A DNA stretch of 64,000 nt from a virus (IMGVR_UViG_3300012348_000136:1-64000); one strand, 5' to 3'; positions 2,581 through 30,215 are shown, counted from the first letter of the stretch. Notes: generated from the sequence alone by a model not told the origin. Made by a program: numbers and translations.

Positions 2581-2848
2581 CATAATCATTAGCGAAGGCT
2601 GCACTGCTTTCTACACTGACGTGAACGGAAAGACTGTCGGTGGGAGCTATGAACCAACACGATTGACGGAAGAAGAAGAAAACGAACTTGTTGATTATCT
2701 GCTTGTCAAAGTCAAAGAAGGTATCACAAATAGCACAATTAGTCTTAACGCATTGATTGGTCTTTTTCAATATGATGACTACGAGACTGATGAATATTCG
2801 TGTGAGCAATGCGGAGATTCCGTAAGCCGAACAATTTACAACATATGA
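2567..2848 (+). CDS. hypothetical protein (93 aa), Cys-containing C-terminus
   Basis: Track ORF. Confidence 0.45.
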   Translation: MTKYNIIISEGCTAFYTDVNGKTVGGSYEPTRLTEEEENELVDYLLVKVKEGITNSTISLNALIGLFQYDDYETDEYSCEQCGDSVSRTIYNI

Positions 2849-3240
2849 GCTACAATCTTTTTCTTGATGATGTTCGTAAACCCGACGATGCATGGTTGTA
2901 TGATCAAAAAGTAAAGTTGTGCGAGGCAAGCAACATTCACAACTGGGTGATTGTTCGCGATTATGACCAATTTGTCAAAATGATCCGTGACGGCGGTATT
3001 CCTACTGTCGTTTCATTTGACCATGATCTTCACTTTGAACATATGCGTCATTACTTTGATGTCACGTCCAAATGCGGAGTCGTTGAGTATGGTAATCTCA
3101 AGTATAAGACAGGACTATCATGTGCACAGTACCTAATTGATGCCTGTCGTGAAAAGAACGTGTCTCTTCCACGCTGTTATGTTCATAGTGCAAATGAATG
3201 GGGTCGCGAAAACATCAAGAAACTACTTGGGATTGACTAA
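2845..3240 (+). CDS. hypothetical protein (131 aa)
   Basis: Track ORF 2809..3240 with start moved to the ATG at 2845. Confidence 0.45.
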   Translation: MSYNLFLDDVRKPDDAWLYDQKVKLCEASNIHNWVIVRDYDQFVKMIRDGGIPTVVSFDHDLHFEHMRHYFDVTSKCGVVEYGNLKYKTGLSCAQYLIDACREKNVSLPRCYVHSANEWGRENIKKLLGID

Positions 3241-4165: not shown

Positions 4166-4381
4166 ATGATTCCTGAAAAAGATAAAAAGTATGCAATCGC
4201 TTTTCATCACCCACATTGGCGTGAATGCGACTTTGTTGGGATTGCGATGTGCAACGGCGAGCTAGATGGATTTGGTGAAGAAGACGACTATGAACAGTGG
4301 TATGGCTTCGTTAATCCAAAAGATCCAGACGACACTCTGTTCTTTGCATCTCAAGATATCGTATGTGAAGTGAAAGAATAA
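4166..4381 (+). CDS. hypothetical acidic protein (71 aa)
   Basis: Track ORF. Confidence 0.45.
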   Translation: MIPEKDKKYAIAFHHPHWRECDFVGIAMCNGELDGFGEEDDYEQWYGFVNPKDPDDTLFFASQDIVCEVKE

Positions 4382-4382
4382 T

Positions 4383-4559
4383 ATGGACCCGAACATTGAA
4401 AAGATCATAGAACTCGAGAAGGAAAAATCTGAGCTTGAGACTGAAGCTATTTACTTATACCAGACGTTGTGTAATATCCTAAGTATTGCTAGCGTTAATG
4501 GGCAGGTGTTTTATGTTGCCAACTCTGCGGTAACTGCATACGAACAACGCCGAAAGTAA
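4383..4559 (+). CDS. small ORF (about 58 aa)
   Basis: Hand-read ORF MDPNIEKIIELEKEKSELE.. in the gap between track ORFs. Confidence 0.3.
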   Translation: MDPNIEKIIELEKEKSELETEAIYLYQTLCNILSIASVNGQVFYVANSAVTAYEQRRK

Positions 4560-4561
4560 AC

Positions 4562-4846
4562 ATGGACATAACGATCAAAGCAAAAAATGGAGACATTCAT
4601 GAATTTGAATTTTTTAAATCGTGGGGTTTAAGAAATCCAAATACATGTGTATTCCAATACTATTGCCGTCGCAGCGATAATATTGAAATGGGAATACAAA
4701 TACTACCTCTTATGTTTTGGAAAGCATTTGGATTTTCGAGAGATTACTTTAATGATTTACGTATGAATGCCAAACATCGCCGTCGCATATTCATCGGCCT
4801 CGGCTTCTTTGAATTATTTTATGACGTATATGACAATGACGCGTGA
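4562..4846 (+). CDS. hypothetical protein (94 aa)
   Basis: Track ORF. Confidence 0.45.
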   Translation: MDITIKAKNGDIHEFEFFKSWGLRNPNTCVFQYYCRRSDNIEMGIQILPLMFWKAFGFSRDYFNDLRMNAKHRRRIFIGLGFFELFYDVYDNDA

Positions 4847-4847
4847 A

Positions 4848-5309
4848 ATGAAATTCCGTCTGTGGGACTATGAAAAGAAGACTATGGTTTACGCCGATAG
4901 TCTGCAGCAATTGTCGTTGATCGTTAAAGAGAGCGGTAAGTCATATGATCAATTTGCAATTCAGCAATTTAGCGGTAAGTATGATATTTATAAATTCCCG
5001 ATTTACGATGGAGACATTGTTGAATTAGTTCTTGCGTTGCAGACAGATGACCATGGTCGCAAACACGGTCCTGCAGATTCATTTGGTGTGTATGAAGTCT
5101 TCTATCGTGAGCGCAGTGCTGCATACTTCCTTCGTGTACATCGCAGTAATTGGCTTGATACATGGTTCACAACTGAGAAGCAAGCTGCCAAACTAACGAT
5201 TGATCCATTGTGTCCACATGTGACATGCTTGGAACGTGAATTGGGTAACTTCGGTATTATGCACGTCATCGGCAACATCTACGAAAACCCTGAACTACTA
5301 GAACAATGA
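4848..5309 (+). CDS. YopX-like phage protein, paralogue 1
   Basis: N-terminus MKFRLWDYEKK and C-terminus IGNIYENPELLEQ are shared with the next gene. Start chosen among several in-frame ATGs. Confidence 0.5.
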   Translation: MKFRLWDYEKKTMVYADSLQQLSLIVKESGKSYDQFAIQQFSGKYDIYKFPIYDGDIVELVLALQTDDHGRKHGPADSFGVYEVFYRERSAAYFLRVHRSNWLDTWFTTEKQAAKLTIDPLCPHVTCLERELGNFGIMHVIGNIYENPELLEQ

Positions 5310-5668
5310 GCAGAGAACTTAAATTTAGAATCTGGGATAAGCAGATGCGATACTTCTTATCTGAAACTGAAGCTCGTCATTATTTTTGTTATGATATCTT
5401 TACACAAAGCGATTTTATCGTTCAACAATACACTGGCTTGAAAGACAAGAATGGTGCTGAGATTTATGAAGGTGACATCGTTCGTGCAGTTACTGTGAAT
5501 GATGGGACTGAATTCTATGCACCGATTGTATTTTCTCCATGGGCGGGTTATTACCTTGACAGCCCAATTGAGTCATGCGATCGCGACGTATATGATGGCG
5601 GTGTTAGTATTGGAACAGAATGCGAAGTCGTCGGCAACATTCACGAAAATCCCGAACTACTAGACTAA
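5306..5668 (+). CDS. YopX-like phage protein, paralogue 2
   Basis: N-terminus LKFRIWDKQ; C-terminus VGNIHENPELLD. Confidence 0.5.
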   Translation: MSRELKFRIWDKQMRYFLSETEARHYFCYDIFTQSDFIVQQYTGLKDKNGAEIYEGDIVRAVTVNDGTEFYAPIVFSPWAGYYLDSPIESCDRDVYDGGVSIGTECEVVGNIHENPELLD

Positions 5669-5669
5669 C

Positions 5670-5867
5670 ATGGCATACATCCAAGAACAATACTGTAAAG
5701 CATGTGACTGTGTAAGATCATTCATAAACAATGTCTGTCCACAATGCGAGGAGCGTAAACGTCGAACCGAAATGGCTGCATGGCAAGCATTAACTTCTGA
5801 TGAAAAGTTGCTTGACATTCACCGACGTTTGCTTGCACTTGAAAACCGTAAAGAAATCAGATACTAA
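5670..5867 (+). CDS. zinc-ribbon protein (65 aa)
   Basis: CxxC...CxxC spacing (CKACDC...CPQCEE). Confidence 0.45.
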   Translation: MAYIQEQYCKACDCVRSFINNVCPQCEERKRRTEMAAWQALTSDEKLLDIHRRLLALENRKEIRY

Positions 5868-10173: not shown

Positions 10174-10423
10174 CACAAAAGAAGACTGGGAAGAATTTCA
10201 ATCAGACATTGCAACCGAACTTGTAGATGATTATTTGACAGGTGGTGACGATGATTATCAATTTGTAGATCAGGTTTACCGTAACGGAGATGTGTATGTT
10301 AGTATATCATATGAAAGATGTCGATACCTTGGTACGTTAAGTTACAACTGGATGCATGCAATTCGTGTTTACCCAAAGCAAGTTATACGAACAATTTACG
10401 TAGAAGAAAATGAGCAGGATTAA
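10160..10423 (+). CDS. hypothetical acidic protein (87 aa)
   Basis: Track ORF. Confidence 0.4.
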   Translation: MSFFNTKEDWEEFQSDIATELVDDYLTGGDDDYQFVDQVYRNGDVYVSISYERCRYLGTLSYNWMHAIRVYPKQVIRTIYVEENEQD

Positions 10424-10940
10424 TCTATATGCAGGACCTGGAGCAGGTAAGAGTACAACAGCATCATGGCTATTTGCTGAACTAAAGAAACGTGGTTATA
10501 GCGTTGAACTTGTTAGTGAATATGTAAAGAGTTGGGCAATCGCCAAACGAGACGTGATCGGCTTTGACCAAGTGTACCTAATGGGAAAGCAACTCAATTA
10601 TGAATACCGCTTTCTTGCGCATGGCATACAACATATTGTGACAGACAGTCCAGTGTTGCTGTCTGCATGCTATACTCGATCTTACTTTGACGACCTTAAG
10701 ATTGCAGATCATATGGAAGCAATCATTGCTGAATATGAAGCACGTCATCCAAGCCTAAACATCTTTTTGAATCGTGATGGTAAAGAATACCGAACCGAAG
10801 GCCGTTGGCAAGACGCTGAAGCAGCAAAGAAGATTGACGGTATTGTGAAAGACGCTTTAAATCGCAACGGCTTGCCATACACTGAGTTTTCCTTCTATGA
10901 TAGTGAAGGTATCTTGAAACACGTGATTGAAAATATATGA
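10410..10940 (+). CDS. P-loop NTPase, putative (deoxy)nucleotide or nucleoside kinase
   Basis: Walker A GPGAGKSTTA; about 176 aa. The GK[SD]TTA pattern resembles my recollection of T4 gp1 dNMP kinase. Confidence 0.45.
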   Translation: MSRINLYAGPGAGKSTTASWLFAELKKRGYSVELVSEYVKSWAIAKRDVIGFDQVYLMGKQLNYEYRFLAHGIQHIVTDSPVLLSACYTRSYFDDLKIADHMEAIIAEYEARHPSLNIFLNRDGKEYRTEGRWQDAEAAKKIDGIVKDALNRNGLPYTEFSFYDSEGILKHVIENI

Positions 10941-11457: not shown

Positions 11458-11486
11458 TTTACATGTGGTCGGTTTCCGTTTATAAT
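11458..11486 (+). promoter_or_regulatory. sigma70-like early promoter in a repeated cassette
   Basis: TTTACA-N17-TATAAT plus the conserved leader gtaaggaaaccaccaca. Confidence 0.6.
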
Positions 11487-11915: not shown

Positions 11916-12110
11916 ATGAATGCTAAAACATTTTACCCTGATAGAGGATACTTCAACAGCGGTCGAGGCGAACCTTTCAATAAGCCGATGTCAGCTCAGC
12001 GAAAAAGAATCATTCGCCGCTATAAGAAACGCTATCGGAGAATCATTGACAGACACGCTGACTATTCTCCATTTGAAGACACTCAAGAGTATCACGAATC
12101 CTTTGCATGA
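11916..12110 (+). CDS. small basic protein (64 aa)
   Basis: Track ORF; Arg/Lys-rich. Confidence 0.4.
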   Translation: MNAKTFYPDRGYFNSGRGEPFNKPMSAQRKRIIRRYKKRYRRIIDRHADYSPFEDTQEYHESFA

Positions 12111-12289
12111 AAAATCTCATTCTGACCACACTTGCCTGCGCCGTTCACATCGGCATTCATCAAGTCACCCATCACTACAGTCTGATCAGCGTAGAGTCAA
12201 ATCGTAACCTGCTTTTCCTTGCGCTCTTTGCAACCTTTGCTTTCGGAATCACCGCTGACATTAAACATCATGTACACTCTAAGGGATAA
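12107..12289 (+). CDS. small membrane protein (60 aa)
   Basis: Track ORF with two hydrophobic segments. Confidence 0.35.
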   Translation: MKNLILTTLACAVHIGIHQVTHHYSLISVESNRNLLFLALFATFAFGITADIKHHVHSKG

Positions 12290-12470
12290 AATCCACGATC
12301 TAGAAACCGAACTCTTGCAGCTGCAACTTCTTACTCTCAATGACGGTATCACGATTGACACTCCATTGTGTAATGAAGATTACATTCCTCTTGAGCGTGA
12401 AGATGATCCGATTTACACATGTTCAAAACAATGGGACGGCCAACGTGTCGTAATTCTCAAAAAACGCTAA
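12270..12470 (+). CDS. hypothetical protein
   Basis: Track ORF 12219..12470 trimmed to an internal ATG. Confidence 0.35.
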   Translation: MYTLRDKIHDLETELLQLQLLTLNDGITIDTPLCNEDYIPLEREDDPIYTCSKQWDGQRVVILKKR

Positions 12471-12480
12471 TCTCTACACT

Positions 12481-12750
12481 ATGAATAAAACTAACCTTAC
12501 ACTATTGACAACGTCAGTAATTTTGTCAGCGTCAGCCATCCTTGTATCGTCATGCAACGATCGGGAGTTGGACGAAGAGCACAAAGAGAAAATTGCTGCA
12601 CCACGTTTTCAAGTGGTTGAGCATGTCAAATTTGACGACCTGCGGCGTGACGGTCGAATTATGCTAGACAAAGAAACTGGAATTAAGTATCTTTATGTCC
12701 CTACGCAACATAATGATGGTCCTATCTTTACGCGACTTTGGGAAAAGTAA
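12481..12750 (+). CDS. putative lipoprotein (89 aa)
   Basis: Signal peptide plus lipobox-like ILVSSC. Confidence 0.45.
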   Translation: MNKTNLTLLTTSVILSASAILVSSCNDRELDEEHKEKIAAPRFQVVEHVKFDDLRRDGRIMLDKETGIKYLYVPTQHNDGPIFTRLWEK

Positions 12751-12774
12751 ACTTTAACATAATCACATATTTCT

Positions 12775-13725
12775 ATGAATAAACAACGCCTACATCTAAA
12801 TTGGGTCACGTCGACTCATCAAACCTACTTCGTTTCTTTGGACGGAGATTACTGTCCAATTGCGAAAACCGAAAATCTACTTCGTATTCCTTTGAAAGAG
12901 AATACATTCCCAGGCGGAGAAGTTCACCTTCGTCTTGACATCAATGAAGATCAAGTAGCTGACAACGCGCATCTTATTATTGCTGCGCGATACAACACCG
13001 CCGCCGACATCCTTAAGATTGTTCTTGCAGCTGATGCTGCACGCCGTCTTGGATTTTCTAAGACCACGCTTATTCTTCCATACTTCCCCGCGGCGCGTCA
13101 AGATCGTGTCTGTAATGTTGGCGAGCCTCTTACCGTCAAGATCTTTGCTGATATGATTAACGGATGCGGCTTTCATGCGGTTCATATTCTCAGCCCGCAC
13201 AGCGAAGTCACTCCGGCATTGCTGAATAATGTCGTGGTTCATGACGAATGCGGTTTGGTTGAGCGTGCACTGTGTAGGTGGATTACACAAACAAATTTGA
13301 CGACCATCAATATCGTTTGTCCCGATGCTGGCGCAGGCAAGCGTGTTGGTAAGGTTGCATCTTACCTTGCAAAGCGCTTTCCGCAAAACGGTGTCAATCT
13401 TATCCGTTGTGAAAAAGTCCGCGATGTGCGCGACGGCTCGCTTAAGGAGTTCTTTGTCCAAGCCGATGATCTTGGCGGATATCCAACGCTTATCATCGAT
13501 GACATTGTTGCATATGGTGGTACTTTCCTTGGTCTTGCTGACAAGTTGCGTGAACGTAACTGTGGTGAGCTTGGTATCTTCATCTCGCATGCTGACTGTG
13601 AAGAAGGCTTGATGAACCTGCGCCAAAAATTCAATTATGTTGTCACAACTGACTCTAAACGCGATTATGCGGGTTTCGCTTTGGATAATGACAAAACCGT
13701 TGATATCCTACCTTTTAAAATCTAA
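12775..13725 (+). CDS. PRPP-synthetase-family pyrophosphokinase (Prs-like)
   Basis: PRPP-binding loop LIIDDIVAYGGTF; about 316 aa; divergent N-terminus. Confidence 0.6.
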   Translation: MNKQRLHLNWVTSTHQTYFVSLDGDYCPIAKTENLLRIPLKENTFPGGEVHLRLDINEDQVADNAHLIIAARYNTAADILKIVLAADAARRLGFSKTTLILPYFPAARQDRVCNVGEPLTVKIFADMINGCGFHAVHILSPHSEVTPALLNNVVVHDECGLVERALCRWITQTNLTTINIVCPDAGAGKRVGKVASYLAKRFPQNGVNLIRCEKVRDVRDGSLKEFFVQADDLGGYPTLIIDDIVAYGGTFLGLADKLRERNCGELGIFISHADCEEGLMNLRQKFNYVVTTDSKRDYAGFALDNDKTVDILPFKI

Positions 13726-13727
13726 GT

Positions 13728-13937
13728 ATGAAAACGATTGAAAGCTACACAATCTTTGAAGCATATAATGATATTCAGGGCTTGTCACTAAGTGTTGACG
13801 AATATACCAAGATGGGTTGGCAACCATACGGAAGTCTTCAAGTAACGCCAGGTAGCTCTGCTGGCTCAGTACGATACACACAAGCAATGGTCAAGTATGC
13901 ACATGAATCTAACCTTCTAACTGAAACCACACGATGA
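13728..13937 (+). CDS. hypothetical protein (69 aa)
   Basis: Track ORF. Confidence 0.4.
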   Translation: MKTIESYTIFEAYNDIQGLSLSVDEYTKMGWQPYGSLQVTPGSSAGSVRYTQAMVKYAHESNLLTETTR

Positions 13938-14221
13938 AACTACTACTATTCACTGGAATTGGGCTAGCGTCGCTAGCTGCGGTCTATTGCATCTTCTTCA
14001 CATCGGTTGTTGATAAGATTATGCTTAAGATTGCACGCCACCGCGTTTCTGCGGTGGTAGCCAATCTCTCTACAATTAAAGAAGAAGCTGAGCGTCGTCA
14101 ACGACAGCTTTCAGATATGAAAAACGCTTTAGAGGAAGATGTAAAGACTGCGAAAAAAATCGCAGCTTCCGTCCCTCTACTAAACAAGAAAACGAAAAAC
14201 AAAGATACACATGAAAATTAA
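13934..14221 (+). CDS. small membrane protein with coiled coil (95 aa)
   Basis: N-terminal transmembrane segment; precedes the SPFH protein, resembling an NfeD-type partner. Confidence 0.4.
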   Translation: MKLLLFTGIGLASLAAVYCIFFTSVVDKIMLKIARHRVSAVVANLSTIKEEAERRQRQLSDMKNALEEDVKTAKKIAASVPLLNKKTKNKDTHEN

Positions 14222-15506
14222 GCTAATCCTAGCGGCGGTTGTAGTTTCGCTAATCTGTATGGTTGGTGTAAACTTGGTGCATAAAGTTGATGATACTGAA
14301 TGGCAAGCTGTTCAATATTTAAGCGGTGAAGTTGAAATTAAGGAAGACCCTGGAGTCTACTTTGCCTTCTTCCCAAAGGTAACAGAGTATGACCGAAATA
14401 TGTATTTCGAGTTCTCTAAGTTGCCGTCTCCAATGTCGCCAAACGATGAATCAACGCGTGTGACATTCAATGACGGCGGTACCGCTGATCTTGACGCCAC
14501 AATTCGTATTGCTTCACCGGCCACAAAGGAAAAGAAGCGAGAGTTTCACCGACAGTTTAATGGCTCGTCTGTAAACATCAAAGCTGCAATTTGGTCTCAC
14601 ATGGCAAACGTAATTAAGGCATCTGGTCCTCTTATGTCTGCATCTGAAAACCAAGCTGCACGTAAGTCAGAGTTCAACACTGTTGTTCTTAATCAGCTAA
14701 ATGATGGACTATATGAAATGCGTCGCGTTGAGCGTGAGATTGAACAGCTAGATGAAAAAGGCCAGAAGCTCCGCGTTGCAGCAACCGAAGTCATTCTTGC
14801 CAAGGATGGTAAACCAGTCATCTCTCAGGTATCTCCACTTGCGACATATGGCGTAACTGTAACGCAGTTCTCAATCACCGCAACGGAGTATGACGAACAG
14901 ACCAAAAAGCAATTCAGCACCAAGAAGGATGCATTCCTTGCAGCCGAATCTGCAAAGGCGCAGCGTGAAGGTGAAGTCCAACAGCGTCTGATGGTTATTG
15001 AGAAGGGCTTGCGTGAAAAGGCTGAAACCGAAGCAAAGTCCAACCTTGAGAAAGCACAAGCAGTGATTACCGCAATGAAAGAAAAGGAAGTTGCGGAAAC
15101 TCAAATTGCAAAAGAACTTGCGGTTGCAGAGACACAGAAGAAAATTGCTGAAACCGCTGCACAGCAAGCACTTGAAGTTGCAAAGCTAGAAAAGCAAGCA
15201 GCTGAAGAACAAGCGCAAAAGATTCGTATCCTTGCGGAAGCAGAAAAGGATAAGATTGCGCAAGCAGGTGCAATCACTGAAAAGGATCGCGTGACGCTTG
15301 AGGTTCAGCGTGAAACCGCGATTGGCGTTGCAACTGCACTTGCTAAGGTTAATGTTCCTCAGGTTGTTATCAGCGGAAAGGATGCCTCGGGTAACGGCGG
15401 CGGTTCCGCTACACAGTCTGAGCTGATCAACCTAATGCTCCTGAAGCAAAACGGATACCTTGATGCCATGAAGACTCCGTCGATTGGCACCCAAACCGTG
15501 AAATGA
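14211..15506 (+). CDS. SPFH/band-7 (stomatin, HflK/C-like) membrane protein
   Basis: N-terminal transmembrane segment, SPFH core, then a long Ala/Glu/Lys-rich coiled coil (EAEKDKIAQA). Confidence 0.6.
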   Translation: MKIKLILAAVVVSLICMVGVNLVHKVDDTEWQAVQYLSGEVEIKEDPGVYFAFFPKVTEYDRNMYFEFSKLPSPMSPNDESTRVTFNDGGTADLDATIRIASPATKEKKREFHRQFNGSSVNIKAAIWSHMANVIKASGPLMSASENQAARKSEFNTVVLNQLNDGLYEMRRVEREIEQLDEKGQKLRVAATEVILAKDGKPVISQVSPLATYGVTVTQFSITATEYDEQTKKQFSTKKDAFLAAESAKAQREGEVQQRLMVIEKGLREKAETEAKSNLEKAQAVITAMKEKEVAETQIAKELAVAETQKKIAETAAQQALEVAKLEKQAAEEQAQKIRILAEAEKDKIAQAGAITEKDRVTLEVQRETAIGVATALAKVNVPQVVISGKDASGNGGGSATQSELINLMLLKQNGYLDAMKTPSIGTQTVK

Positions 15507-15521
15507 TCGGCTAAAATGTAT

Positions 15522-15557
15522 GAGGTGGGGCGGCTACGGTCTCCCCACCTCTTTTTT
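15522..15557 (+). terminator. rho-independent terminator
   Basis: GAGGTGGGG/CCCCACCTC stem followed by TTTTTT. Confidence 0.7.
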
Positions 15558-15591
15558 GTGAAAAAAATATGAAAATTTGTGAATTTTTTTA

Positions 15592-15620
15592 TTTACAAGC
15601 TGACATTTTCCGTTTATAAT
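15592..15620 (+). promoter_or_regulatory. sigma70-like early promoter in a repeated cassette
   Basis: TTTACA-N17-TATAAT plus the conserved leader. Confidence 0.6.
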
Positions 15621-15645
15621 GATTCTGTAAGGAAACCACCACATT

Positions 15646-16104
15646 ATGAAATTCAAACTTTGGGACAACAAAAATCGCGAGTACATCAACAACCGTCACG
15701 CCGCAATTGACTGCGAAGGTTTTCTGTTTGACGTAAGCAACGATGATCCGATCGAGGCTGAAGTTCTTTATTCGACAGGAGTGACCGACTGTGACGGAAC
15801 CGAACTGTATGTCGGTGATGTGGTTGAAGCAATGAGATCTTCTGCTCGAGTTATGAATGGCGAATTGTTCATGGTCATTTTTAATGAAAAGCTGCGTTGC
15901 TTTGGACTAGTGCGAATTGACGGTCGGTCTGTCGAAAATTACATGGACCTTTTTGCAAGTGACGGCCGCAAAATCCCAGCGCTTAGCCGAGTGATGCCAA
16001 GCGTCGCCGTTCAAGTCACCACCTCAAAGAAGAAGGCTTTCCGCAAGAAAGGTGACATCAGCACTAACATGACTGCACAAATTCTTTTCTGCGGAGAAAA
16101 ATAA
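15646..16104 (+). CDS. YopX-like phage protein, paralogue
   Basis: N-terminus MKFKLWDNKNREY. Confidence 0.5.
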   Translation: MKFKLWDNKNREYINNRHAAIDCEGFLFDVSNDDPIEAEVLYSTGVTDCDGTELYVGDVVEAMRSSARVMNGELFMVIFNEKLRCFGLVRIDGRSVENYMDLFASDGRKIPALSRVMPSVAVQVTTSKKKAFRKKGDISTNMTAQILFCGEK

Positions 16105-16107
16105 TTG

Positions 16108-16136
16108 TTTACATCCGTTCGTTTTCCGTTTATAAT
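16108..16136 (+). promoter_or_regulatory. sigma70-like promoter
   Basis: TTTACA-N17-TATAAT. Confidence 0.55.
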
Positions 16137-16154
16137 CTAACCGACACAAACAAT

Positions 16155-16430
16155 ATGAAACTATCAACCTACGCTCTTTCTGTTCTAACCCTTGCGTTCT
16201 TTGCGACGTCTTGCACTGAAAACAAACGCGCCAAATCATATGGCGGAACACAGACGATCAATCTTCCAGCAAAGACAAAGCTTGTCAATGTTACTTGGAA
16301 GGAAGGCTCTAGCATGTGGATTCTGACACGCCCAATGCGTGAAGATGAAACCCCGGAAACTCTTACCTTCACTGAAAAGTCCGGTTTTGGACTCGTGGAA
16401 GGCAAGGTCATTATCAATGAATCCAAGTAA
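16155..16430 (+). CDS. putative secreted protein or lipoprotein (91 aa)
   Basis: Signal peptide; Cys in ..FFATSC.. Confidence 0.45.
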   Translation: MKLSTYALSVLTLAFFATSCTENKRAKSYGGTQTINLPAKTKLVNVTWKEGSSMWILTRPMREDETPETLTFTEKSGFGLVEGKVIINESK

Positions 16431-16455
16431 ACTAACACTCTCAATACACAACATT

Positions 16456-16851
16456 ATGCAAACATACAGTGAAACGCAAGGCAAAGAATCGTTCGATTGG
16501 AATGAATTTCTCAATCGCGAAAACATTTCTGAGGATGCCGCCGAAGACGCGCGTCTTCGTGCGAAAGATTGGGTCACGTGCGCATGCGGCAATCAATGCT
16601 CAGTCATCCCTCGTGACGGTGAGGGTCAGCCAGACGACTACATTCTGAGAACTTTAAGCGCTGAAGTCGGATTTTATGGCGCTATCAGAAAACAAAACTG
16701 GGAGGAAGCGAAAAATTTCCTGGCGCTAATTGAAATTCGCTCTGCATACTTGATCCGAAAGGAAACTGAAAAAGTCAAAGAAAACTTCATTGACGCTTTA
16801 AAGCAACTTGAGGTGCTTGGTATCAAACCGTCCGATCTCATCAATCAATAA
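16456..16851 (+). CDS. hypothetical protein
   Basis: Track ORF 16339..16851 trimmed to the first ATG after the upstream stop. Confidence 0.4.
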   Translation: MQTYSETQGKESFDWNEFLNRENISEDAAEDARLRAKDWVTCACGNQCSVIPRDGEGQPDDYILRTLSAEVGFYGAIRKQNWEEAKNFLALIEIRSAYLIRKETEKVKENFIDALKQLEVLGIKPSDLINQ

Positions 16852-16871
16852 CATCACATACACCAACAAAT

Positions 16872-18458
16872 ATGAAACCGAATAATGTCATTACTCTTGC
16901 ACCGCTCAATGTTGACGGTTACAAGGTCGATCACCGCCGTCAATATCCGTCCAACTCCGCGCTTGTCTTCAGCAATCTGACAGCTCGCGGCACTCGCATT
17001 AACAGCCTTGATAAGATCATTTTCTTTGGTCTGCAGTACTTCATGGACGAGTATCTGATCAAGGACTGGAACAACAACTTCTTCAATCTCCCACTTGATG
17101 AAGTCACTGAGCAATATGGATACGATCTGCTTGGTTACCTTGGCGTGAACAACATCGGTGATCAGCACATCCGCGACCTCCACGCTCTTGGCCATCTGCC
17201 GCTTGAGATTTGGGCGCTGCCTGAAGGCTCGAATGTCGACCTTCGCGTTCCGATGTTCGTCGTGTGGAATACCGACGCTCGCTTCTACTGGCTGACAAAT
17301 GCTATTGAGACCATTCTCAGTACTACAATGTGGATGCCGTGTACCAGCGCTACAACCGCGCTGATGTACCGCCGTATTCTTCAGCGCTATGCTGATGAGA
17401 CGAATCCGGAGATGGGTGAATTTGTCCAATGGCAAGGTCACGACTTCTCTTTCCGCGGTCACTCTTCGCGTGAATCTGCTTGCACTAGCGGCGGCGGTCA
17501 CCTCCTGTCTTTCACTGGAACTGATACACTGCCGGCAATTAGCTTTCTTGAGAAGCACTATGATTGCAGCCGCCGTACTCAGCTTGTTGGTGGTTCGGTT
17601 GCGGCTACTGAACACAGTGTTATGTGCATGGGTGGTATGGAAGATGAAGTTGAAACCTTCAAGCGCCTCATCACTGAGATCTATCCGTCCGGTATTGTGT
17701 CTATTGTGTCCGATACTTGGGACTTCTGGAATGTTGTTAATCCAAACGGTGGCATTGCAGCTCAACTCAAAGATCTAATCATGGCTCGTGATGGTAAGGT
17801 TGTCATTCGTCCTGACAGTGGTGATCCAGTTAAGATTGTGACTGGCTACACCGAAGATGAAATCATTTGTGAAGATGGTAAGATTTACGAAAAGCAATTT
17901 AAAGCTCTAGCGAATGCATTTCCATCGAAAGGCAAGGAACTCACCGAGCTTGAAGTCAAGGGTATGATTCAGTGCCTTTGGGAAATCTTCGGTGGTACCG
18001 AAACGTCCACTGGTTACAAGCAGCTTGACCGCCACATCGGTGCAATCTACGGCGACAGTATTACGCTTGAACGTGCCGAGCAAATCTGCGCACGCCTCAA
18101 GGCTAAAGGCTTTGCTTCGACCAACCTTGTGTATGGTATCGGATCTTACACTTACCAATATGTTACTCGCGATACGCATATGTTTGCGGTTAAGAGCACC
18201 TACGGCGAAGTCTTCGATGCTGAAGGTAATCGTGTTGGAATTGAGATCTTCAAGGATCCCAAGACTGACAGCGGAATTAAGAAATCCGCAAAAGGCTTGA
18301 CTGCCGTTTATCGTACCGCCGATGGTTTTGAACTGAAGGACCAAGCAACTTGGGACGATGTTAAGAACTGCGCGTTCGTTCAGGTCTTCAAAGATGGCAA
18401 CGTTGTGAAGCGCTGGACTCTGAACGAGGTTCGTGGCGAGGTTGCCAAGAGCTTCTAA
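16872..18458 (+). CDS. nadV: nicotinamide phosphoribosyltransferase-family enzyme (NadV/NAMPT-like)
   Basis: 528 aa; overall NAMPT-like features as recalled from T4-like phage KVP40 NadV. The antisense ORF 16854..17765 is regarded as spurious. Confidence 0.6.
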   Translation: MKPNNVITLAPLNVDGYKVDHRRQYPSNSALVFSNLTARGTRINSLDKIIFFGLQYFMDEYLIKDWNNNFFNLPLDEVTEQYGYDLLGYLGVNNIGDQHIRDLHALGHLPLEIWALPEGSNVDLRVPMFVVWNTDARFYWLTNAIETILSTTMWMPCTSATTALMYRRILQRYADETNPEMGEFVQWQGHDFSFRGHSSRESACTSGGGHLLSFTGTDTLPAISFLEKHYDCSRRTQLVGGSVAATEHSVMCMGGMEDEVETFKRLITEIYPSGIVSIVSDTWDFWNVVNPNGGIAAQLKDLIMARDGKVVIRPDSGDPVKIVTGYTEDEIICEDGKIYEKQFKALANAFPSKGKELTELEVKGMIQCLWEIFGGTETSTGYKQLDRHIGAIYGDSITLERAEQICARLKAKGFASTNLVYGIGSYTYQYVTRDTHMFAVKSTYGEVFDAEGNRVGIEIFKDPKTDSGIKKSAKGLTAVYRTADGFELKDQATWDDVKNCAFVQVFKDGNVVKRWTLNEVRGEVAKSF

Positions 18459-19338: not shown

Positions 19339-19854
19339 ATGAAAACGAACACTACTGTATACACTCCCCCTAGATACTCTAAGAGATACTCTAAGAGAGA
19401 CAGCTCCGCTCCTTCAGTCTTCCTAGCAGGAAGTATTGAAATGGGTAACGCTGAAGATTGGCAAACAAAAGCTATTGATTATTTTAGGCGCGTTATTCCG
19501 ATTGGAAACTCTATCGACTTCTATAATCCTCGGCGTCCTGATTGGGATTCTAGTTGGGTTCAAGATCTAAACAGTCCCAACTTCTATGAGCAGGTATCTT
19601 GGGAACTTGATCATTTGCTTGCAGCTGACTTCATTTATATGTACTTTGATCCATCTACTCAAAGTCCCATTTCTCTCCTTGAGCTTGGCATGTTTGCAAA
19701 TAGCGGCAAGATGGTTGTATGCTGTCCCAATGGATTCTATCGTAAAGGAAACGTCGATATCGTTTGCCAAAAGATGCAGGTACCACTCTTTACTAACTTT
19801 GAGGCAAGCCTAATTGCGCTAAGAAACAGAATTGGAGAATACGCTGAATGGTGA
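19339..19854 (+). CDS. nucleoside 2-deoxyribosyltransferase-family protein
   Basis: VFLAGSIE ... LLELGMFANSGK pattern of the Nuc_deoxyrib_tr fold. Confidence 0.5.
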   Translation: MKTNTTVYTPPRYSKRYSKRDSSAPSVFLAGSIEMGNAEDWQTKAIDYFRRVIPIGNSIDFYNPRRPDWDSSWVQDLNSPNFYEQVSWELDHLLAADFIYMYFDPSTQSPISLLELGMFANSGKMVVCCPNGFYRKGNVDIVCQKMQVPLFTNFEASLIALRNRIGEYAEW

Positions 19855-20369: not shown

Positions 20370-20900
20370 ATGAAAACTCTACAAACACCTGAAGAATATG
20401 GATACGTCCAGCATGGAAACATTGTCCTCTTTCAGAAAGGACCGCTTAGCCAATGGTATGGTGGCTTTAAAGATCAGGATAGTTGTTTCTATGATCAATA
20501 TAGCGGCTATCATTTTAATTGTTGTGAACAATGGATGATGGCTCAAAAGGCGTTTCTTTTTAGTGATTTGGATACAGCCGACCTTATTATTGCAGAGAGA
20601 CATCCAGGAACCCAAAAGGACCTCGGTCGACGTGTTAAGAACTTTGATCCTACGCTTTGGGACGCCGTGAAAGAAGACATCGTGTTTCTTGGAAACTATT
20701 ATAAGTTTACTAAGTGCAATCATTTACGTGACTTTTTGTTTTCGTATGATGTTAATACAATCTTTGCTGAGGCTGCTCCATGGGATCCAATCTGGGGAAT
20801 CGGACTTGGGCCAAATGATCCGGATGCAGCCGATCCTTCAAAGTGGCGTGGTCAAAATCTGCTTGGTAAAGCAATCAGTCGCGTTCGTAAATTACTCTAA
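20370..20900 (+). CDS. NADAR-domain (YbiA-like, DUF1768) protein
   Basis: FYDQYSGYHFNCCEQWMMAQKAFLF ... DPIWGIGLG ... WRGQNLLGKAI match NADAR family motifs. Confidence 0.6.
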   Translation: MKTLQTPEEYGYVQHGNIVLFQKGPLSQWYGGFKDQDSCFYDQYSGYHFNCCEQWMMAQKAFLFSDLDTADLIIAERHPGTQKDLGRRVKNFDPTLWDAVKEDIVFLGNYYKFTKCNHLRDFLFSYDVNTIFAEAAPWDPIWGIGLGPNDPDAADPSKWRGQNLLGKAISRVRKLL

Positions 20901-22897: not shown

Positions 22898-22926
22898 TTT
22901 ACATTGGTCGGTTTTCCGTTTATAAT
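22898..22926 (+). promoter_or_regulatory. sigma70-like early promoter in a repeated cassette
   Basis: TTTACA-N17-TATAAT plus the conserved leader; a TTCACATTTTGTGAA inverted repeat lies upstream. Confidence 0.6.
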
Positions 22927-27383: not shown

Positions 27384-27848
27384 ATGATACGGAATGAGAT
27401 TCCTGCGCTACTAGCCAAACCCACTAGGAAATTTCCAGAGCTGGTTGCGCATTTTATCCCTGCACCTGATTACACAAACGAACCAAACAAAATAGACTAT
27501 ACCCGAATGGAAGAAAAAGAAAGCATTAAAATTCTTGACGAATGTAAAGCACTTCAAATCAAGAAGTCAAACGATTACCAAAATCCCCACTCACGTATTC
27601 GTCAAGCAGATTATTATCCTCGCGGCGTTGCTACAATTCTTGACATCATTCAAGCAAAAGTGCTGCGAATGTATTCGGTAATTGAGGCTATGGAAAACGA
27701 TCCAAGCTATGTTCCGAACTTTGAAAGCTTTGAGGATAGCTGTAAAGATCTTATTAACTATGCTTCATTTGCAGCTGCATATTCACGTGGCAAGGTCGAT
27801 GGTCAGTCTCCTTCCAAAGACTTCCTAAATCGCAATGTGAACGCATGA
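27384..27848 (+). CDS. hypothetical protein (154 aa)
   Basis: Track ORF. Could be an NTP-pyrophosphatase-type nucleotide-metabolism protein; I could not assign it. Confidence 0.4.
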   Translation: MIRNEIPALLAKPTRKFPELVAHFIPAPDYTNEPNKIDYTRMEEKESIKILDECKALQIKKSNDYQNPHSRIRQADYYPRGVATILDIIQAKVLRMYSVIEAMENDPSYVPNFESFEDSCKDLINYASFAAAYSRGKVDGQSPSKDFLNRNVNA

Positions 27849-28720
27849 AGAACGTAGTGTTTATCCCGACGTCTAATCTTTACAGAGTGCGTACTCTGAT
27901 AAAGTACTATAACGTCCATAACTTACCAACTGATCAGCGTGTCATTTTCATCGCCGATGATCGTGGCAACATCTCAAAGGAAGAGTATGCTGAGGCTGTA
28001 AATGATTCGAGGTTTGAGTTAATCTATACCTCCGATATGATGGCTGCCGTGAATGACTTGTTTGCGGACTGTCCATATTATGATCCAATCATCAATGACA
28101 TGTATAAAGTGTCAGTGAAAATGCTTGTGTTCATTTATGCAGCTCGTCATATGAGTATCCGCAAGAGCTTGATGCTTGACGACGACATCTTGTTTCTCAA
28201 GCCGCTTGATGAATGGTTTGCGTATGATTATGTTGTCAAAGAGGACGGCTTGTCAACGATGACTACAACATTAGTTAATGGTTTTCAAAGTACATACCCT
28301 CATGTTGATGTTGCGGAATTTAATCAGCCAAAGCATCGTATCAATTCAGGAAGCATTCTTTACACTATGGAAGATAACGACCGTTTGCTTAACGACGTTC
28401 GTGCTTTCTTCTCATCAGACGACATATATCGCATTCTCGTGAATCGTCTAAATAAGACAAGTTCACGTCGAAAAGGTTGGGGTTATGATTGGATGCTTGA
28501 ACAATACTTCTATGGCATCCATATGTATTCCTTAGGCGTAGAGATTCCGCGCTTCCGTTCAGCCGTTAATATTGGTCTTGGATATCCAAAGGAAGATAAA
28601 CCGCTTAAGCCATTTAAGAAAATTCCAAATGTGATTCATTTCCTTCAGATGGAAAAGCAGCGAATGTACGATGCATATCTACCTCTGATTGATGAATACA
28701 TCAGAACCAATAAACTGTAA
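27845..28720 (+). CDS. putative glycosyltransferase
   Basis: DDD motif (LMLDDDILF), possibly a GT-A DxD. Confidence 0.35.
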   Translation: MKNVVFIPTSNLYRVRTLIKYYNVHNLPTDQRVIFIADDRGNISKEEYAEAVNDSRFELIYTSDMMAAVNDLFADCPYYDPIINDMYKVSVKMLVFIYAARHMSIRKSLMLDDDILFLKPLDEWFAYDYVVKEDGLSTMTTTLVNGFQSTYPHVDVAEFNQPKHRINSGSILYTMEDNDRLLNDVRAFFSSDDIYRILVNRLNKTSSRRKGWGYDWMLEQYFYGIHMYSLGVEIPRFRSAVNIGLGYPKEDKPLKPFKKIPNVIHFLQMEKQRMYDAYLPLIDEYIRTNKL

Positions 28721-28721
28721 C

Positions 28722-29771
28722 ATGGCACAACATATCACAACACTTGTCGTTGACTATGACGACACAATAGCAATTACTTTTAATCGTGATTGGCAGAATG
28801 CTAAACCAAATCAGCCGCTGATTAATAAACTAAATCAGCTGTATGATCAAGGATGGACCATTCACATTGTAACTGCACGCGGTCAGCTTTCATGTGATGG
28901 TGACTATCAAAAAGCAGATGATAAGTATCGTAAGCAAATTGAAAAGTGGTTGAGCGATCATAATGTAAAGTATCATACGCTAAGTTTCCAAAAGAAGCTG
29001 GCAGCATATTACATTGATGATAAAGGAATAACTCCTGAGCAGTTTGTTGAAAAATTTGATCGGGTTGATCTACAAAACGGTTGGTCAGGTGCTTCAGTTT
29101 ATTATGATGCAGTTACTGATTGCGTTTATAAGACCGCGTCAAACGGTCATGAAGCAATTCAGTGGTATGAGCATGCAACCGCATTAGGTTACAATACACC
29201 ACATGTCCACAACATCATCGGCAACACTATTCGTATGAGTAGGCTGCCTGCTTACACTGGAAGTGTATGTGATGCGGTTGATAGTATCATATCATTCGGC
29301 AAACATCCAGCATTGCGCGGAAATAAAGACGCTCTTGCATATGTTGAACGCTGTACCGCGCGCGTAAAGAACATGTTGCCAACCGATACTTTAAAAAGTA
29401 TTGTTAACTTTCTACAGGTTGCAATGCAGTCTACACCATTCACATTTGGGCACGGTGATTGTTCATCGTTGAACATTATGGGAGCTGCGGCTGACTCATG
29501 TGTTCCTGCATTCATTGATCCAATCAACGATTCTACATTGTATAGCAGCTATGTCATTGACCTTGGAAAATATTATGCAAGCATTGACATCTTTAAACAA
29601 GAACCATCTATTAAAGACGAAATCCTTAATGCTGTAGATAGCGTAAGTAGCTGGACAATCAAAGCGCATGCACTTGGACATCTTTGCCGTTGCTTGCCAT
29701 ATGCACCCACTGAGGCAGACAAACTGCATATAACTACTCTTATCGAAAAACAAACATATGCTCTTAGATAA
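28722..29771 (+). CDS. bifunctional HAD-like phosphatase / APH-type sugar kinase candidate
   Basis: N-terminus VVDYDDTIA (HAD motif I) and IVTAR. C-terminal HGDCSSLNI (HGDxxxxN kinase motif) and FIDPIND. Confidence 0.45.
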   Translation: MAQHITTLVVDYDDTIAITFNRDWQNAKPNQPLINKLNQLYDQGWTIHIVTARGQLSCDGDYQKADDKYRKQIEKWLSDHNVKYHTLSFQKKLAAYYIDDKGITPEQFVEKFDRVDLQNGWSGASVYYDAVTDCVYKTASNGHEAIQWYEHATALGYNTPHVHNIIGNTIRMSRLPAYTGSVCDAVDSIISFGKHPALRGNKDALAYVERCTARVKNMLPTDTLKSIVNFLQVAMQSTPFTFGHGDCSSLNIMGAAADSCVPAFIDPINDSTLYSSYVIDLGKYYASIDIFKQEPSIKDEILNAVDSVSSWTIKAHALGHLCRCLPYAPTEADKLHITTLIEKQTYALR

Positions 29772-30207
29772 AAAAGAACTAGCCGCTAGACTTGGAAAAG
29801 ATATCAACGACGTAAAGATTGGTCTTACCGCGTCCACATTTGACTTGTTTCATGCAGGCCATAATGTAATGCTGATGGAAGCAAAACAACTTTGTGACTA
29901 TCTCATTGTTGGCTTGCTGGTAGACCCAACAAAAGATCGCCCAGACACAAAGAACAAGCCAGTCCAAAGTGTGTTTGAGCGTTACATCCAAATTTCAAGC
30001 TGCAAGTACATTGATGAAATCATTCCGTTTGAAACCGAAAACGATTTGGTCGATATGATCCTAACTATCAATCCTGACATTCGTATTGTTGGGGAAGAAT
30101 ACAAAGGTACTGACCATACTGGAGTTGGTCTTTGCCCAATTCATTATAATAAGCGTCGCCACTCGTTCTCTACAAGTGAGCTACGCACACGAATTCAAAA
30201 TCAATAA
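29758..30207 (+). CDS. cytidylyltransferase-like nucleotidyltransferase (TagD/HldE-adenylyltransferase type)
   Basis: TASTFDLFHAGH HxGH nucleotidyltransferase motif; 149 aa. Confidence 0.55.
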   Translation: MLLDKKELAARLGKDINDVKIGLTASTFDLFHAGHNVMLMEAKQLCDYLIVGLLVDPTKDRPDTKNKPVQSVFERYIQISSCKYIDEIIPFETENDLVDMILTINPDIRIVGEEYKGTDHTGVGLCPIHYNKRRHSFSTSELRTRIQNQ

Positions 30208-30215
30208 TTACATAT

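Follow-up and report, generated by a model that had tools for sequence, protein, structure and literature searches.

A predicted NARP1 pair, adps and namat, with a variable spacer in an uncultured aquatic phage

The window, by which we mean the whole stretch of 64,000 nucleotides that was analysed, comes from an uncultured phage (IMGVR_UViG_3300012348_000136). A first-pass annotation had proposed two ORFs of this phage as a candidate NAD+ pathway; both exist exactly at the coordinates given there, with ATG starts and with Pfam matches far beyond chance (Table 1). The first, adps, codes for 316 aa with the two-domain fold of the Prs family (Pribosyltran_N, PF13793, 6.8e-11; Pribosyltran, PF00156, 3.8e-06). 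The second, namat, codes for 528 aa matching NAPRTase (PF04095, 1.7e-35) and NAMPT_N (PF18127, 1.8e-09). Both genes lie on the + strand with 3,146 nt between them, namat being the seventh gene downstream of adps. Between them are the SPFH, weakly YopX-like and lipoprotein-like genes that the annotation had named, and three further ORFs.

Table 1. Positions of the two predicted NARP1 genes, their spacer and other features of the window
Feature	Position	Strand	Basis
adps, ADP-ribose pyrophosphokinase (Prs-family), predicted NARP1 enzyme 1	12775..13725	+	Pfam, HMM, tree, motifs
DUF1737-like ORF, 69 aa, first spacer gene	13728..13937	+	weak DUF1737 6.9e-4
95-aa ORF, N-terminal hydrophobic segment, spacer gene	13934..14221	+	family search without match
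SPFH/Band_7 membrane protein, 431 aa, spacer gene	14211..15506	+	Band_7 4.9e-08, phrog_11908 1.4e-56
Promoter-like element TTTACA-N17-TATAAT, in ~80-nt repeated intergenic element, upstream of YopX-like gene	15592..15620	+	11/12 consensus match
YopX-like ORF (weak), 152 aa, spacer gene	15646..16104	+	YopX 7.7e-4 (below cut-off), phrog_98 1.4e-08
Promoter-like element before lipo91 (91-aa ORF), 131-aa ORF and namat	16108..16136	+	11/12 consensus match
Lipoprotein-like ORF, 91 aa, signal peptide and Cys, spacer gene	16155..16430	+	phrog_12728 5e-25
131-aa ORF, four-helix bundle, conserved W-x-TCACGNQC-x2-IPR motif	16456..16851	+	21 nt upstream of namat
namat, nicotinamide ADP-ribose transferase (NAMPT-family), predicted NARP1 enzyme 2	16872..18458	+	PDB match, motifs, catalytic residues
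Nuc_deoxyri_tr2 gene (nucleoside 2-deoxyribosyltransferase-like), conserved neighbour	19339..19854	+	PF15891 2.1e-35
NADAR-domain gene, conserved neighbour	20370..20900	+	PF08719 1.8e-41, TIGR02464 2.4e-34
HxGH nucleotidyltransferase ORF	43166-44401		CTP_transf_like 26.5 bits and DUF5824

The namat product scores 529.7 bits on the NCBIfam model NF006629 (cut-off 405), and a phmmer search of PDB gives 484.5 bits to the Namat of phage SPbetaL1 (9w5x/9w5w) against ~222 bits to human NAMPT. It is 47% identical to SPbetaL1 Namat over the full length, from which it differs by an insertion of ~27 residues (aa 329-357), and 47-48% identical to the Namats of SPbetaL1, FADO and Bas63 taken together. In a blastp matrix it reaches 380-461 bits to the Namats of SPbetaL1, FADO, ICP1 and VSe11, as opposed to 170 bits (27% identity) to the KVP40-like Nampt. 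A tblastn search of phages falls into two tiers, 34-50% identity for NARP1-bearing lineages and 25-30% for T4-like/jumbo phages of the NARP2 type. Membership of the Namat clade was thus tested by similarity and not by a full tree. The catalytic core (D15, Y17, F192, R195, D218, A245, H248, R313, D315) is identical to that of SPbetaL1 (D13, Y15, F189, R192, D215, A242, the catalytic His, R306, D308), and the published catalytic and NAD-contact residues are all kept, including the catalytic H248 and R313. All 21 functional positions that were mapped are either conserved or carry substitutions found in other Namats.

Namats are recognized by the motif GS-X-Phi-X-Phi-X-Phi-TRD and by Arg, Lys or Tyr at the third position of the SCL loop, which is the residue that stacks on adenine (PMC12774641). 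The SCH motif of the window protein is GSYTYQYVTRD (G424 to D434), identical to that of the Vibrio phage ICP1 Namat, with Y426 and Y430 at positions 3 and 7 and with T, Q and V, the stated preferred residues, as Phi1, Phi2 and Phi3. Its SCL loop, TARGTR42I, aligns with TPRTSR40V of SPbetaL1 and is of the Arg type, whereas ICP1 has Lys-Tyr. The adenine clamp R42/Y426/Y430/T432/R433/D434 is present. The KVP40 NadV-NatV route (NARP2) shares with this protein the catalytic core of the NAMPT family, and it too ends in NAD+, but in the KVP40-type Nampt the clamp is replaced by GGGLLQQLDRD and a short SCL, with K/G/Q/D at the clamp positions and with differences at S190G, S391G, F392G, Y396Q and T398D. 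A NARP2-type Nampt, i.e. one of the PRPP-preferring clade, was rejected for this gene because the Namat clamp is present. The product is a predicted Namat, which would prefer ADPR-PP, and not a plain NadV. Because some Nampt activity is left in Namat in vitro (PMC12774641; bioRxiv 10.1101/2024.02.11.579819), a certain production of NMN is possible in this phage.

The adps product contains TLIIDDIVAYGGTF and matches phrog_619 at 3e-64. It scores 103.2 on TIGR01251 (cut-off 113) and 36-86 bits on the NCBIfam Prs equivalog models (cut-offs 296-536); all NCBIfam Prs cut-offs are missed, and validated Adps proteins show the same sub-threshold profile (on TIGR01251, SPbetaL1 106 and FADO 96.5). A bootstrapped neighbour-joining tree, in which support is moderate (294 columns, small outgroup panel), places it inside the Adps clade with 88% support against nine Prs/Prs-like outgroups, between VSe11 and the SPbetaL1/FADO Adps. 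The closest cultured Adps is that of ICP1 (Adps/Namat pair gp228/gp229; Adps with 35% identity, 130 bits, sister at 74% bootstrap), whose PRPP loop reads DDICDGAASF where the window protein has DDIVAYGGTF. An Adps HMM made without the protein's own lineage gives it 151 bits, against 79 and 111 bits on Prs HMMs, so that the margin over the broad Prs HMM (111 bits) is only ~40 bits; in leave-one-out tests of the Adps HMM ICP1 scores 143 and VSe11 147, and every Prs <=96.

The protein resembles the class I Prs of E. coli and B. subtilis in its two-domain PRT-type fold, and it has the RQDR motif, the His motif and the flexible-loop catalytic Lys of these enzymes. This Lys, K162 in SPbetaL1, is K214 here and lies in a conserved K-x-R-[DN]-x3-G loop. 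The identity to E. coli Prs is 27%, that to the Adps of SPbetaL1, FADO and Bas63 27-32%. Four class I motifs were checked, namely DLHAxQIQGFF, the KRRxR loop, the DTGGT 5-phosphate loop and the C-terminal allosteric segment, and all four are altered or absent: the Adps-only motifs PHSEVTPALLNN and KVRDVRDG stand in place of DLHAxQIQGFF and the KRRPR flexible loop, Tyr replaces Thr225 in the 5-phosphate loop, and the allosteric tail is lacking. A bona fide Prs was rejected on these grounds and on the missed Prs cut-offs. It should be noted that the protein is somewhat more Prs-like than other Adps in that ARQDR and FPGGE are kept, and that it has an N-terminal extension of ~30 residues compared to the SPbetaL1, FADO and Bas63 proteins. 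As there is neither a solved structure nor a published specificity motif for Adps to compare with, the protein was assigned by its membership of the clade and by linkage. By sequence, motifs and phylogeny the product is a predicted Adps, which would act on ADPR rather than on ribose-5-P.

NARP1 is found in about 4% of phages, and we consider it highly probable that it is carried by this one, as a known counter-defence pathway rebuilding NAD+, with a variable spacer between the two genes. The Adps/Namat reading, preferred to Prs/NadV already in the first-pass annotation, held in every sequence-level test of membership that was run, and neither a standard Prs nor a plain NadV was found. By analogy to the characterised homologs in SPbetaL1, FADO and Bas63, which provide both the chemistry and the anti-defence phenotype, defence systems with SIR2, TIR or SEFIR effectors (e.g. 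Thoeris I, DSR1/2, SIR2-HerA) would deplete NAD+ by splitting it into ADP-ribose and nicotinamide. Adps would then pyrophosphorylate ADPR with ATP to ADPR-PP, and Namat would let nicotinamide displace the pyrophosphate and thus make NAD+ directly. The mechanism is already known and nothing new is revealed about it.

The reference systems are those of the Bacillus phages SPbetaL1 and FADO and the E. coli phage Bas63 (Osterman et al., 2024, bioRxiv 10.1101/2024.02.11.579819), with Namat structures in PDB 9w5x/9w5w (PMC12774641). The window agrees with them in both enzyme families, gene order and strand, and all catalytic, NAD-contact and adenine-clamp residues of Namat and the catalytic Lys of Adps are shared. 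In the reference phages the genes are adjacent or overlapping, and in ICP1 they are separated by 34 nt, while six ORFs, 3.1 kb and two promoter-like elements lie between them here. The first-pass annotation had regarded this arrangement as unusual. The six unrelated genes between the enzyme genes turn out to be the only unusual feature, and one that is normal for the phage lineage, in which 0 to 10 genes are routine (0, 2, 6 or 10 in the relatives). The distance is within the definition of NARP1 as a Namat homolog within 10 genes of Adps (bioRxiv 10.1101/2024.02.11.579819), and interrupted operons are known: Vibrio phage Gary has Adps-Adpp-Namat, termed NARP1-AP, in which Adpp is a Macro-domain ADPR-1P phosphatase (bioRxiv 10.64898/2026.01.28.702374), and Felixounavirus VSe11 has Adps-HNH-Namat with a homing endonuclease. 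These have one intervening gene each, as compared to six here without Macro domain or detectable link to ADPR. NARP1-AP, which takes a Macro-domain phosphatase within two genes of NARP1, was rejected: no Adpp match (PF14519/PF01661/PF20016) was obtained in the spacer and flanking ORFs, nor in the whole window among the Pfam families listed. The split operon should leave the pathway unimpaired because the two enzymes need neither co-translation nor a complex.

The interval itself is a recombination-prone variable spacer, and no tight operon of adps and namat exists in this lineage. In relative L005 they are adjacent, with no spacer genes and a gap of 56 nt, whereas one independent contig, L024, has nearly the same cassette as the window: the SPFH gene (99.3% identical) and the 95-aa ORF (89%) are in the same positions and the YopX-like ORF, which has a weak paralog at 5318-5491 of the window, is absent. 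A homolog of the DUF1737-like ORF also follows adps in L021. The promoter-like elements of Table 1 belong to a family that occurs 14 times in the window (0.09 expected), two of these occurrences being in the spacer. The one in front of the YopX-like gene can be aligned to copies at 11458, at 22898 and in L005; the other is homologous to the 56-nt spacer of L005, where the same element stands directly upstream of namat. There is no terminator-like site on the + strand between adps and namat, and namat possesses a promoter-like element of its own.

The findings widen the range of NARP1 by an abundant lineage of aquatic myoviruses, uncultured and without a close cultured relative. The matches listed include at least hundreds of homologs from the environment (50-83% identity), while the closest Namat of a cultured phage reaches only 50%, and depletion of NAD by immune systems is implied as a relevant selective pressure in their freshwater or marine hosts. 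As the two genes can be further apart than in a tight operon, such loci would be missed by searches demanding strict adjacency. For annotation the locus may serve as a worked example of how Adps/Namat can be separated from Prs/NadV by sequence.

The first-pass annotation also held that the phage could encode either this route or a KVP40-type salvage, or both. In the latter, NARP2-like, the Prs-like enzyme would make PRPP, the NAMPT-like enzyme NMN, and the product of 43166-44401, described as NMNAT-like, would adenylate NMN to NAD+, instead of or besides NARP1. The ORF exists, but its likeness to NMNAT is only generic. It scores 19 bits on TIGR01526 (cut-off 341), passes none of the NCBIfam NMNAT family thresholds, and does not match any solved NMNAT significantly, be it by sequence or by profile. 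Its fold belongs to the NMNAT/NadD/PPAT subgroup, in which PPAT is structurally as close to it as the NMNATs are. The family is core in T4-like cyanophages and pelagiphages and has >7,900 environmental members, most of them in phages without any Nampt; in the window the gene is 25 kb away from adps and namat and has a DUF6267 gene as its neighbour, and in phrog_455 these two are fused. The product is an HxGH nucleotidyltransferase. NARP2 needs a NadM/NadR-type Nmnat, of which no convincing homolog was found in the window, and Osterman et al. (bioRxiv 10.1101/2024.02.11.579819) encountered both pathways together in no phage. Given also the full clamp for ADPR-PP in the NAMPT-like enzyme, its clustering with Namat, and a Prs-like enzyme that nests in the Adps clade below all Prs thresholds, this salvage is distinctly improbable. 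As for NARP3, which combines a PnuC-like NR transporter with a NadR-like RNK-NMNAT, the NadR models were unmatched and PnuC was absent among the Pfam families listed; the AAA_28 protein at 10410-10940 has generic P-loop similarity only.

The two enzymes might also be functionally uncoupled, the Prs-like one making PRPP for phage nucleotides, the NAMPT-like one acting alone, and their proximity being a coincidence in a gene-dense early region. This would fit with the 3.1 kb and two promoter-like elements between the genes, and with discordant histories across relatives, e.g. 58% as against 92% identity in L022. We find it very unlikely in view of the clade and motif evidence for Adps and Namat and of the linkage, which was judged in every relative with a sufficient contig (L005, L007, L021, L023, L024) and found in all of them on the same strand within ~4 kb. 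It is kept despite heavy turnover of the intervening genes and therefore argues for selection on co-occurrence. Namat is moreover nearby for 97% of Adps-clade genes (bioRxiv 10.1101/2024.02.11.579819).

That the spacer genes are new accessories of an extended NARP1, delivering or processing ADPR derivatives like Adpp in NARP1-AP or like RyDEP, is hardly credible: known accessory genes do lie between or beside adps and namat, four relatives (L021, L022, L023, L024) keep the lipoprotein-like gene immediately before namat and L024 repeats the entire cassette, but none of the six resembles a known NARP1 accessory, Pfam and PHROG searches gave no Macro, RyR or Nudix signature for them nor any other sign of nucleotide binding, the 69-aa DUF1737-like ORF has no NAD-related signal, the 131-aa product is a helical bundle of a generic kind whose family is also found away from NARP1 in L025, the SPFH gene is elsewhere in L007, three of the six products are predicted membrane or exported proteins while NARP1 chemistry is cytoplasmic, and L005 does without spacer genes.

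Returning to NARP1, the pair could belong to a larger counter-defence island for NAD and ADPR, which we regard as unlikely in either of two versions. In one, the Nuc_deoxyri_tr2-like and NADAR proteins would feed the pathway by freeing ADPR or nicotinamide, either from DNA that carries ADP-ribose or from immune signals derived from ADPR. In the other, the product of 43166 would be an unrecognised phage NMNAT using NMN from the residual Nampt activity of Namat; this would bring ADPR-based and PRPP-based routes together in one phage, a combination reported absent from sequenced phages. In L005, L021 and L023, too, the Nuc_deoxyri_tr2 gene lies downstream of namat, and the NADAR gene is near NARP1 in these three and in L024. 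Phage NADAR is an anti-DarT factor (cited in PMC13464706), and the NADAR gene is probably a separate counter-defence against ADP-ribosylation.

The Prs-like and NAMPT-like genes of the window phage, both found where the first-pass annotation had placed them, very probably form a functional NARP1. This pathway was described in 2024 and is present in ~4.3% of sequenced phages (Osterman et al., bioRxiv 10.1101/2024.02.11.579819). By analogy with its homologs, in the window phage Adps would make ADPR-PP from ADPR and ATP, Namat would make NAD+ from ADPR-PP and nicotinamide, and the two enzymes would jointly counter NAD depletion by SIR2-, TIR- and SEFIR-based defences. The family and clade of both proteins, their conserved motifs and residues and the conserved linkage of their genes are observed directly. 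The pathway itself is known; new here is a member from an uncultured aquatic lineage in which the genes are split and reassorting. Such a split locus is useful for annotation and ecology and will not surprise the specialist. No match to the region turned up when 50,697 cultured phage records were searched by megablast; an identical Prs-like protein is also present on a 95.7-kb metagenomic contig.

Features of the window and, where compared, their counterparts in the relative L024
Feature	Position	Strand	Remarks
cREC_REC protein	2809-3240		143 aa; 1.7e-19
AAA_28 protein	10410-10940
Prs-like ORF	12775-13725	+	316 aa; Pribosyltran_N and Pribosyltran matches; contains TLIIDDIVAYGGTF; L024 2287-3222
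Spacer ORF 1			DUF1737-like, 69 aa
Spacer ORF 2			95 aa
Spacer ORF 3	14211-15506		SPFH, 431 aa; L024 3508-4803
Spacer ORF 4			weak YopX-like
Spacer ORF 5			lipoprotein-like, 91 aa
Spacer ORF 6	start 16456		131 aa; start agrees with source annotation
Restart of synteny with L005	16105-16163
NAMPT-like ORF	16872-18458	+	528 aa; NAMPT_N and NAPRTase; NCBIfam NF006629, 529.7 bits
Nuc_deoxyri_tr2-like gene	19339-19854		phrog_30579
NADAR gene	20370-20900
Sugar-nucleotide cluster	27845-31238		HAD capsule-type phosphatase, RfaE-II/TagD-like adenylyl/cytidylyltransferase, GalE-like epimerase
Second CTP_transf_like gene	29758-30207
DUF6267 protein	40928-42166		339 bits; KWDG motif resembling motif I of ligases/nucleotidyltransferases
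Intervening ORF	42168-43166
HxGH nucleotidyltransferase-DUF5824 gene	43166-44401
Promoter-like element copies	47, 3250, 11458, 15592, 16108, 19864, 22898, 24947, 27349, 45785(-), 54106, 57693, 57928, 60274

Since the literature offers neither a structure nor a specificity motif for Adps, membership has to be judged by clade and linkage, following Osterman et al. (bioRxiv 10.1101/2024.02.11.579819); the best PDB match of the window protein is E. coli Prs with 60 bits. The Adps set comprised the validated SPbetaL1 and FADO operons, to which the NARP1-type pairs of ICP1, Felixounavirus VSe11 and one B. thuringiensis plasmid were added, and the comparison panel held nine Prs and Prs-like proteins, canonical to very divergent. 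Pairwise BLAST was indecisive as a discriminator (80-130 vs 72 bits) and a tree and competing HMMs were therefore used. The window protein scores 103.2 bits with TIGR01251 (cut-off 113) and 36-86 bits with the equivalog models (cut-offs 296-536), and this profile with curated models matches SPbetaL1 Adps (106) and FADO Adps (96.5). A neighbour-joining tree of 24 sequences over 294 columns, bootstrapped with 200 replicates, pairs the window lineage with ICP1 Adps as sisters (74%); SPbetaL1, FADO and the B. thuringiensis protein join next (80%), followed by VSe11. The Adps clade, window included, is monophyletic with 88% bootstrap support against every Prs and Prs-like protein of the panel. The HMMs, from whose building the window lineage was excluded, gave the window protein 151 bits as Adps vs 79 as canonical Prs and 111 with the HMM of all Prs-like proteins; in leave-one-out scoring, ICP1 and VSe11 Adps reached 143 and 147 bits, and on the Adps HMM every Prs stayed at 96 bits or less.

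The window protein shares with Adps the motif PHS[DE]VTPAL[IL]NN, where Prs has DLHAEQIQGFFD, and the flexible loop K-x-R-[DN]-x3-G, which is KRRPRANV in Prs. Its catalytic lysine K214 corresponds to K162 of SPbetaL1, and the C-terminal allosteric segment of Prs is absent. Compared with the Prs and Adps sets, as the first-pass annotation had proposed, the protein is thus Adps-like by models, tree, HMMs and motifs. Its predicted assignment as Adps is strong but not certain, because the margin is moderate and the Prs-like ARQDR is retained in the window lineage. The PRPP loop has an aromatic residue (DDxxx[FY]GGTF) in the window protein, SPbetaL1 and FADO; it was dropped as a signature and is not a general Adps mark, because ICP1 (DDICDGAASF) and VSe11 (DDICDGGRTF) are without it.

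Divergent bacterial Prs-like genes adjoin 'nicotinate phosphoribosyltransferase' genes in Monoglobus pectinilyticus and Azospirillum brasilense, and the Monoglobus protein is sister to the entire Adps clade in the neighbour-joining tree (94% bootstrap). Such pairs may be related to NARP1-like pairs or may be their bacterial forerunners.

For the NAMPT-like enzyme the literature sets explicit criteria separating Namat (ADPR-PP to NAD+) from Nampt (PRPP to NMN); in Namat a Nampt-like core is conserved and an adenine 'selectivity clamp' is added to it (PMC12774641). The clamp motif of the window protein, G424-S-Y-T-Y-Q-Y-V-T-R-D434, is a perfect fit to the Namat criterion and identical to that of ICP1 Namat, and in SCL, the other part of the clamp, Arg42 aligns with Arg40 of SPbetaL1. 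The mapped nicotinamide, ribose-phosphate, AMP and adenine contacts are kept with A362S and F392Y as the sole differences, both of which also occur in other NARP1 Namats, and so are the catalytic histidine (H248) and the R306 equivalent (R313). A KVP40-like Schizotequatrovirus Nampt, the stand-in for KVP40 NatV, differs in having GGGLLQQLDRD at the clamp position and a shorter SCL. VSe11 stood in for Bas63, which we take to be a member of the Felixounavirus genus. Against the crystal sequences of SPbetaL1 Namat (9w5x/9w5w; full-length identity to this Namat 47%) the window protein reaches 484.5 bits vs ~222 against human NAMPT, and against four NARP1 Namats 380-461 bits vs 170 against the KVP40-like Nampt. 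A spread ranking of 2,024 phage matches falls into two tiers of identity, an upper one (34-50%) of Adps-carrying lineages (Staphylococcus K-like, ICP1, mycobacteriophages, Felixounavirus, Listeria) and a lower one (25-30%) of T4-like and jumbo phages. Clamp, contacts and bit scores are all Namat-like and not those of a KVP40-like Nampt, which agrees with NARP1, one of the two routes suggested earlier for the gene pair.

The single structural peculiarity of the window Namat is an insertion of ~27 residues (aa 329-357), and VSe11 Namat has an even larger one at this site. In L005, the closest relative with adjacent genes, Namat (4210-5835) carries seven extra residues within its SCH clamp motif (aa ~430-447; GSFTYQGAVTEDAIVTRD), which shift the position-7 aromatic that stacks on adenine.

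Between the two genes lie six ORFs, all on the same strand, which had been called an unusual arrangement. This does not hold among relatives of the window phage, where the spacer is variable. In L005, whose Adps is 79% identical, 56 nt separate adps from namat, its direct neighbour, and Nuc_deoxyri_tr2 and NADAR genes come next as in the window; L021 has two spacer genes (DUF1737, lipoprotein), L007/L008 two, L022 at least eight and L023 ten (3.8 kb). The independent Logan assembly L024 has almost the window cassette (98-aa gene, SPFH, 156-aa, 68-aa, lipoprotein and 131-aa gene), which shows that the interruption is inherited rather than produced by assembly. At the DNA level, synteny between the window and L005 stops just past adps and restarts in a short stretch homologous to the adps-namat spacer of L005.

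Adps and Namat are discordant in their identity to the window (79% vs 94% in L024, 57% vs 78% in L023, 58% vs 92% for the N-terminal part in L022), which marks the spacer as a recombination zone across which adps and namat have been reassorted. Reassortment should be tolerable because the enzymes act one after the other without a stable complex (PMC12774641). The mosaic identity between window and L024 (SPFH 99.3%, NADAR 96.6%, Namat 93.9%, Adps 78.8%, 131-aa ORF 76%) indicates recent recombination inside the NARP1 region. The GC content of this region (12001-18000) is 44-47% vs ~40% in the early-gene region on its flanks, as would fit an exchanged module of distinct composition; 24-26 kb and 60-62 kb are similarly high.

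Homing endonucleases target the NARP1 locus elsewhere too. VSe11 has an HNH gene between adps and namat, and in the 141-kb relative L007/L008 (11704-14185) namat is called as three pieces. The L007 insert, ~900 nt as estimated from blastn coordinates, lies between the NAMPT_N and NAPRTase parts and encodes a 260-aa endonuclease (phrog_4645). A group I intron was rejected, with zero Rfam matches and an insert that encodes an endonuclease; possible explanations for the insert are a free-standing homing endonuclease, an intron missed by Rfam or an intein. Split namat genes with HNH genes also occur in several cultured phages.

No Macro, RyR or Nudix domains are among the matches listed in the window-wide Pfam survey, and the 131-aa ORF beside namat was rejected as a Macro or RyR accessory, being a generic four-helix bundle. 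The aRES-type defences yield ADPR-1P (bioRxiv 10.64898/2026.01.28.702374), and the window pathway is predicted to fail against them because Adpp is absent. The Nuc_deoxyri_tr2-like and NADAR genes are kept beside NARP1 in L005, L021 and L023; of the two, only the NADAR gene was found in L024, upstream of adps. NADAR proteins of phages are reported to act against DarT (PMC13464706), and the two genes together with NARP1 may be an NAD/ADP-ribose counter-defence island. The cREC_REC ('cyclic-phosphate processing receiver') protein, also found in L022, is encoded 10 kb from adps and is of possible interest, as ADPR-PP decays to ADPR-cyclic-phosphate.

The gene at 43166 had been called NMNAT-like and counted with the NAD enzymes. 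The name is apt for the fold, but nothing connects the gene with the NARP1 genes 25 kb off. A sequence profile of its family gave no significant match in PDB. T4-like cyanophages, pelagiphage HTVC008M and Methylophilales phage Melnitz carry the family as a core gene; it has >7,900 environmental members and is paired or fused with DUF6267 (fused in phrog_455); in the window only one ORF separates the two genes. The DUF6267 and HxGH nucleotidyltransferase pair is very abundant and conserved in cyanophages and pelagiphages. The second CTP_transf_like gene was rejected as a true NMNAT, being of the RfaE-II/TagD sugar-nucleotide type in a sugar-modification cluster with a possible role in modifying DNA or surface glycans. 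NARP3, a recent addition (PnuC and NadR; PMC13464706), is not seen in the window, where PnuC is not among the Pfam families listed; the AAA_28 protein, considered as a NadR-type ribosylnicotinamide kinase, has generic P-loop matches only.

A promoter-like element, TTTACA-N17-TATAAT, lies inside the stretch where synteny with L005 restarts, and a second intergenic one at 15592-15620. With N16-18 there are 14 copies in the window vs 0.09 expected, nearly all on the + strand and in intergenic gaps, and the extended consensus is TTTACA-N11-TTTCCGTTTATAAT. We interpret these elements as promoters of the phage itself, of which namat would have one to itself even in relatives with adjacent genes. No + strand terminator-like site was found between adps and namat of the window. 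Several copies lie within a repeated intergenic block of ~80 nt which ends in TAAGGAAACCACCACA and is also found in L005, L021 and L023; such repeats may delimit cassettes that are shuffled as modules.
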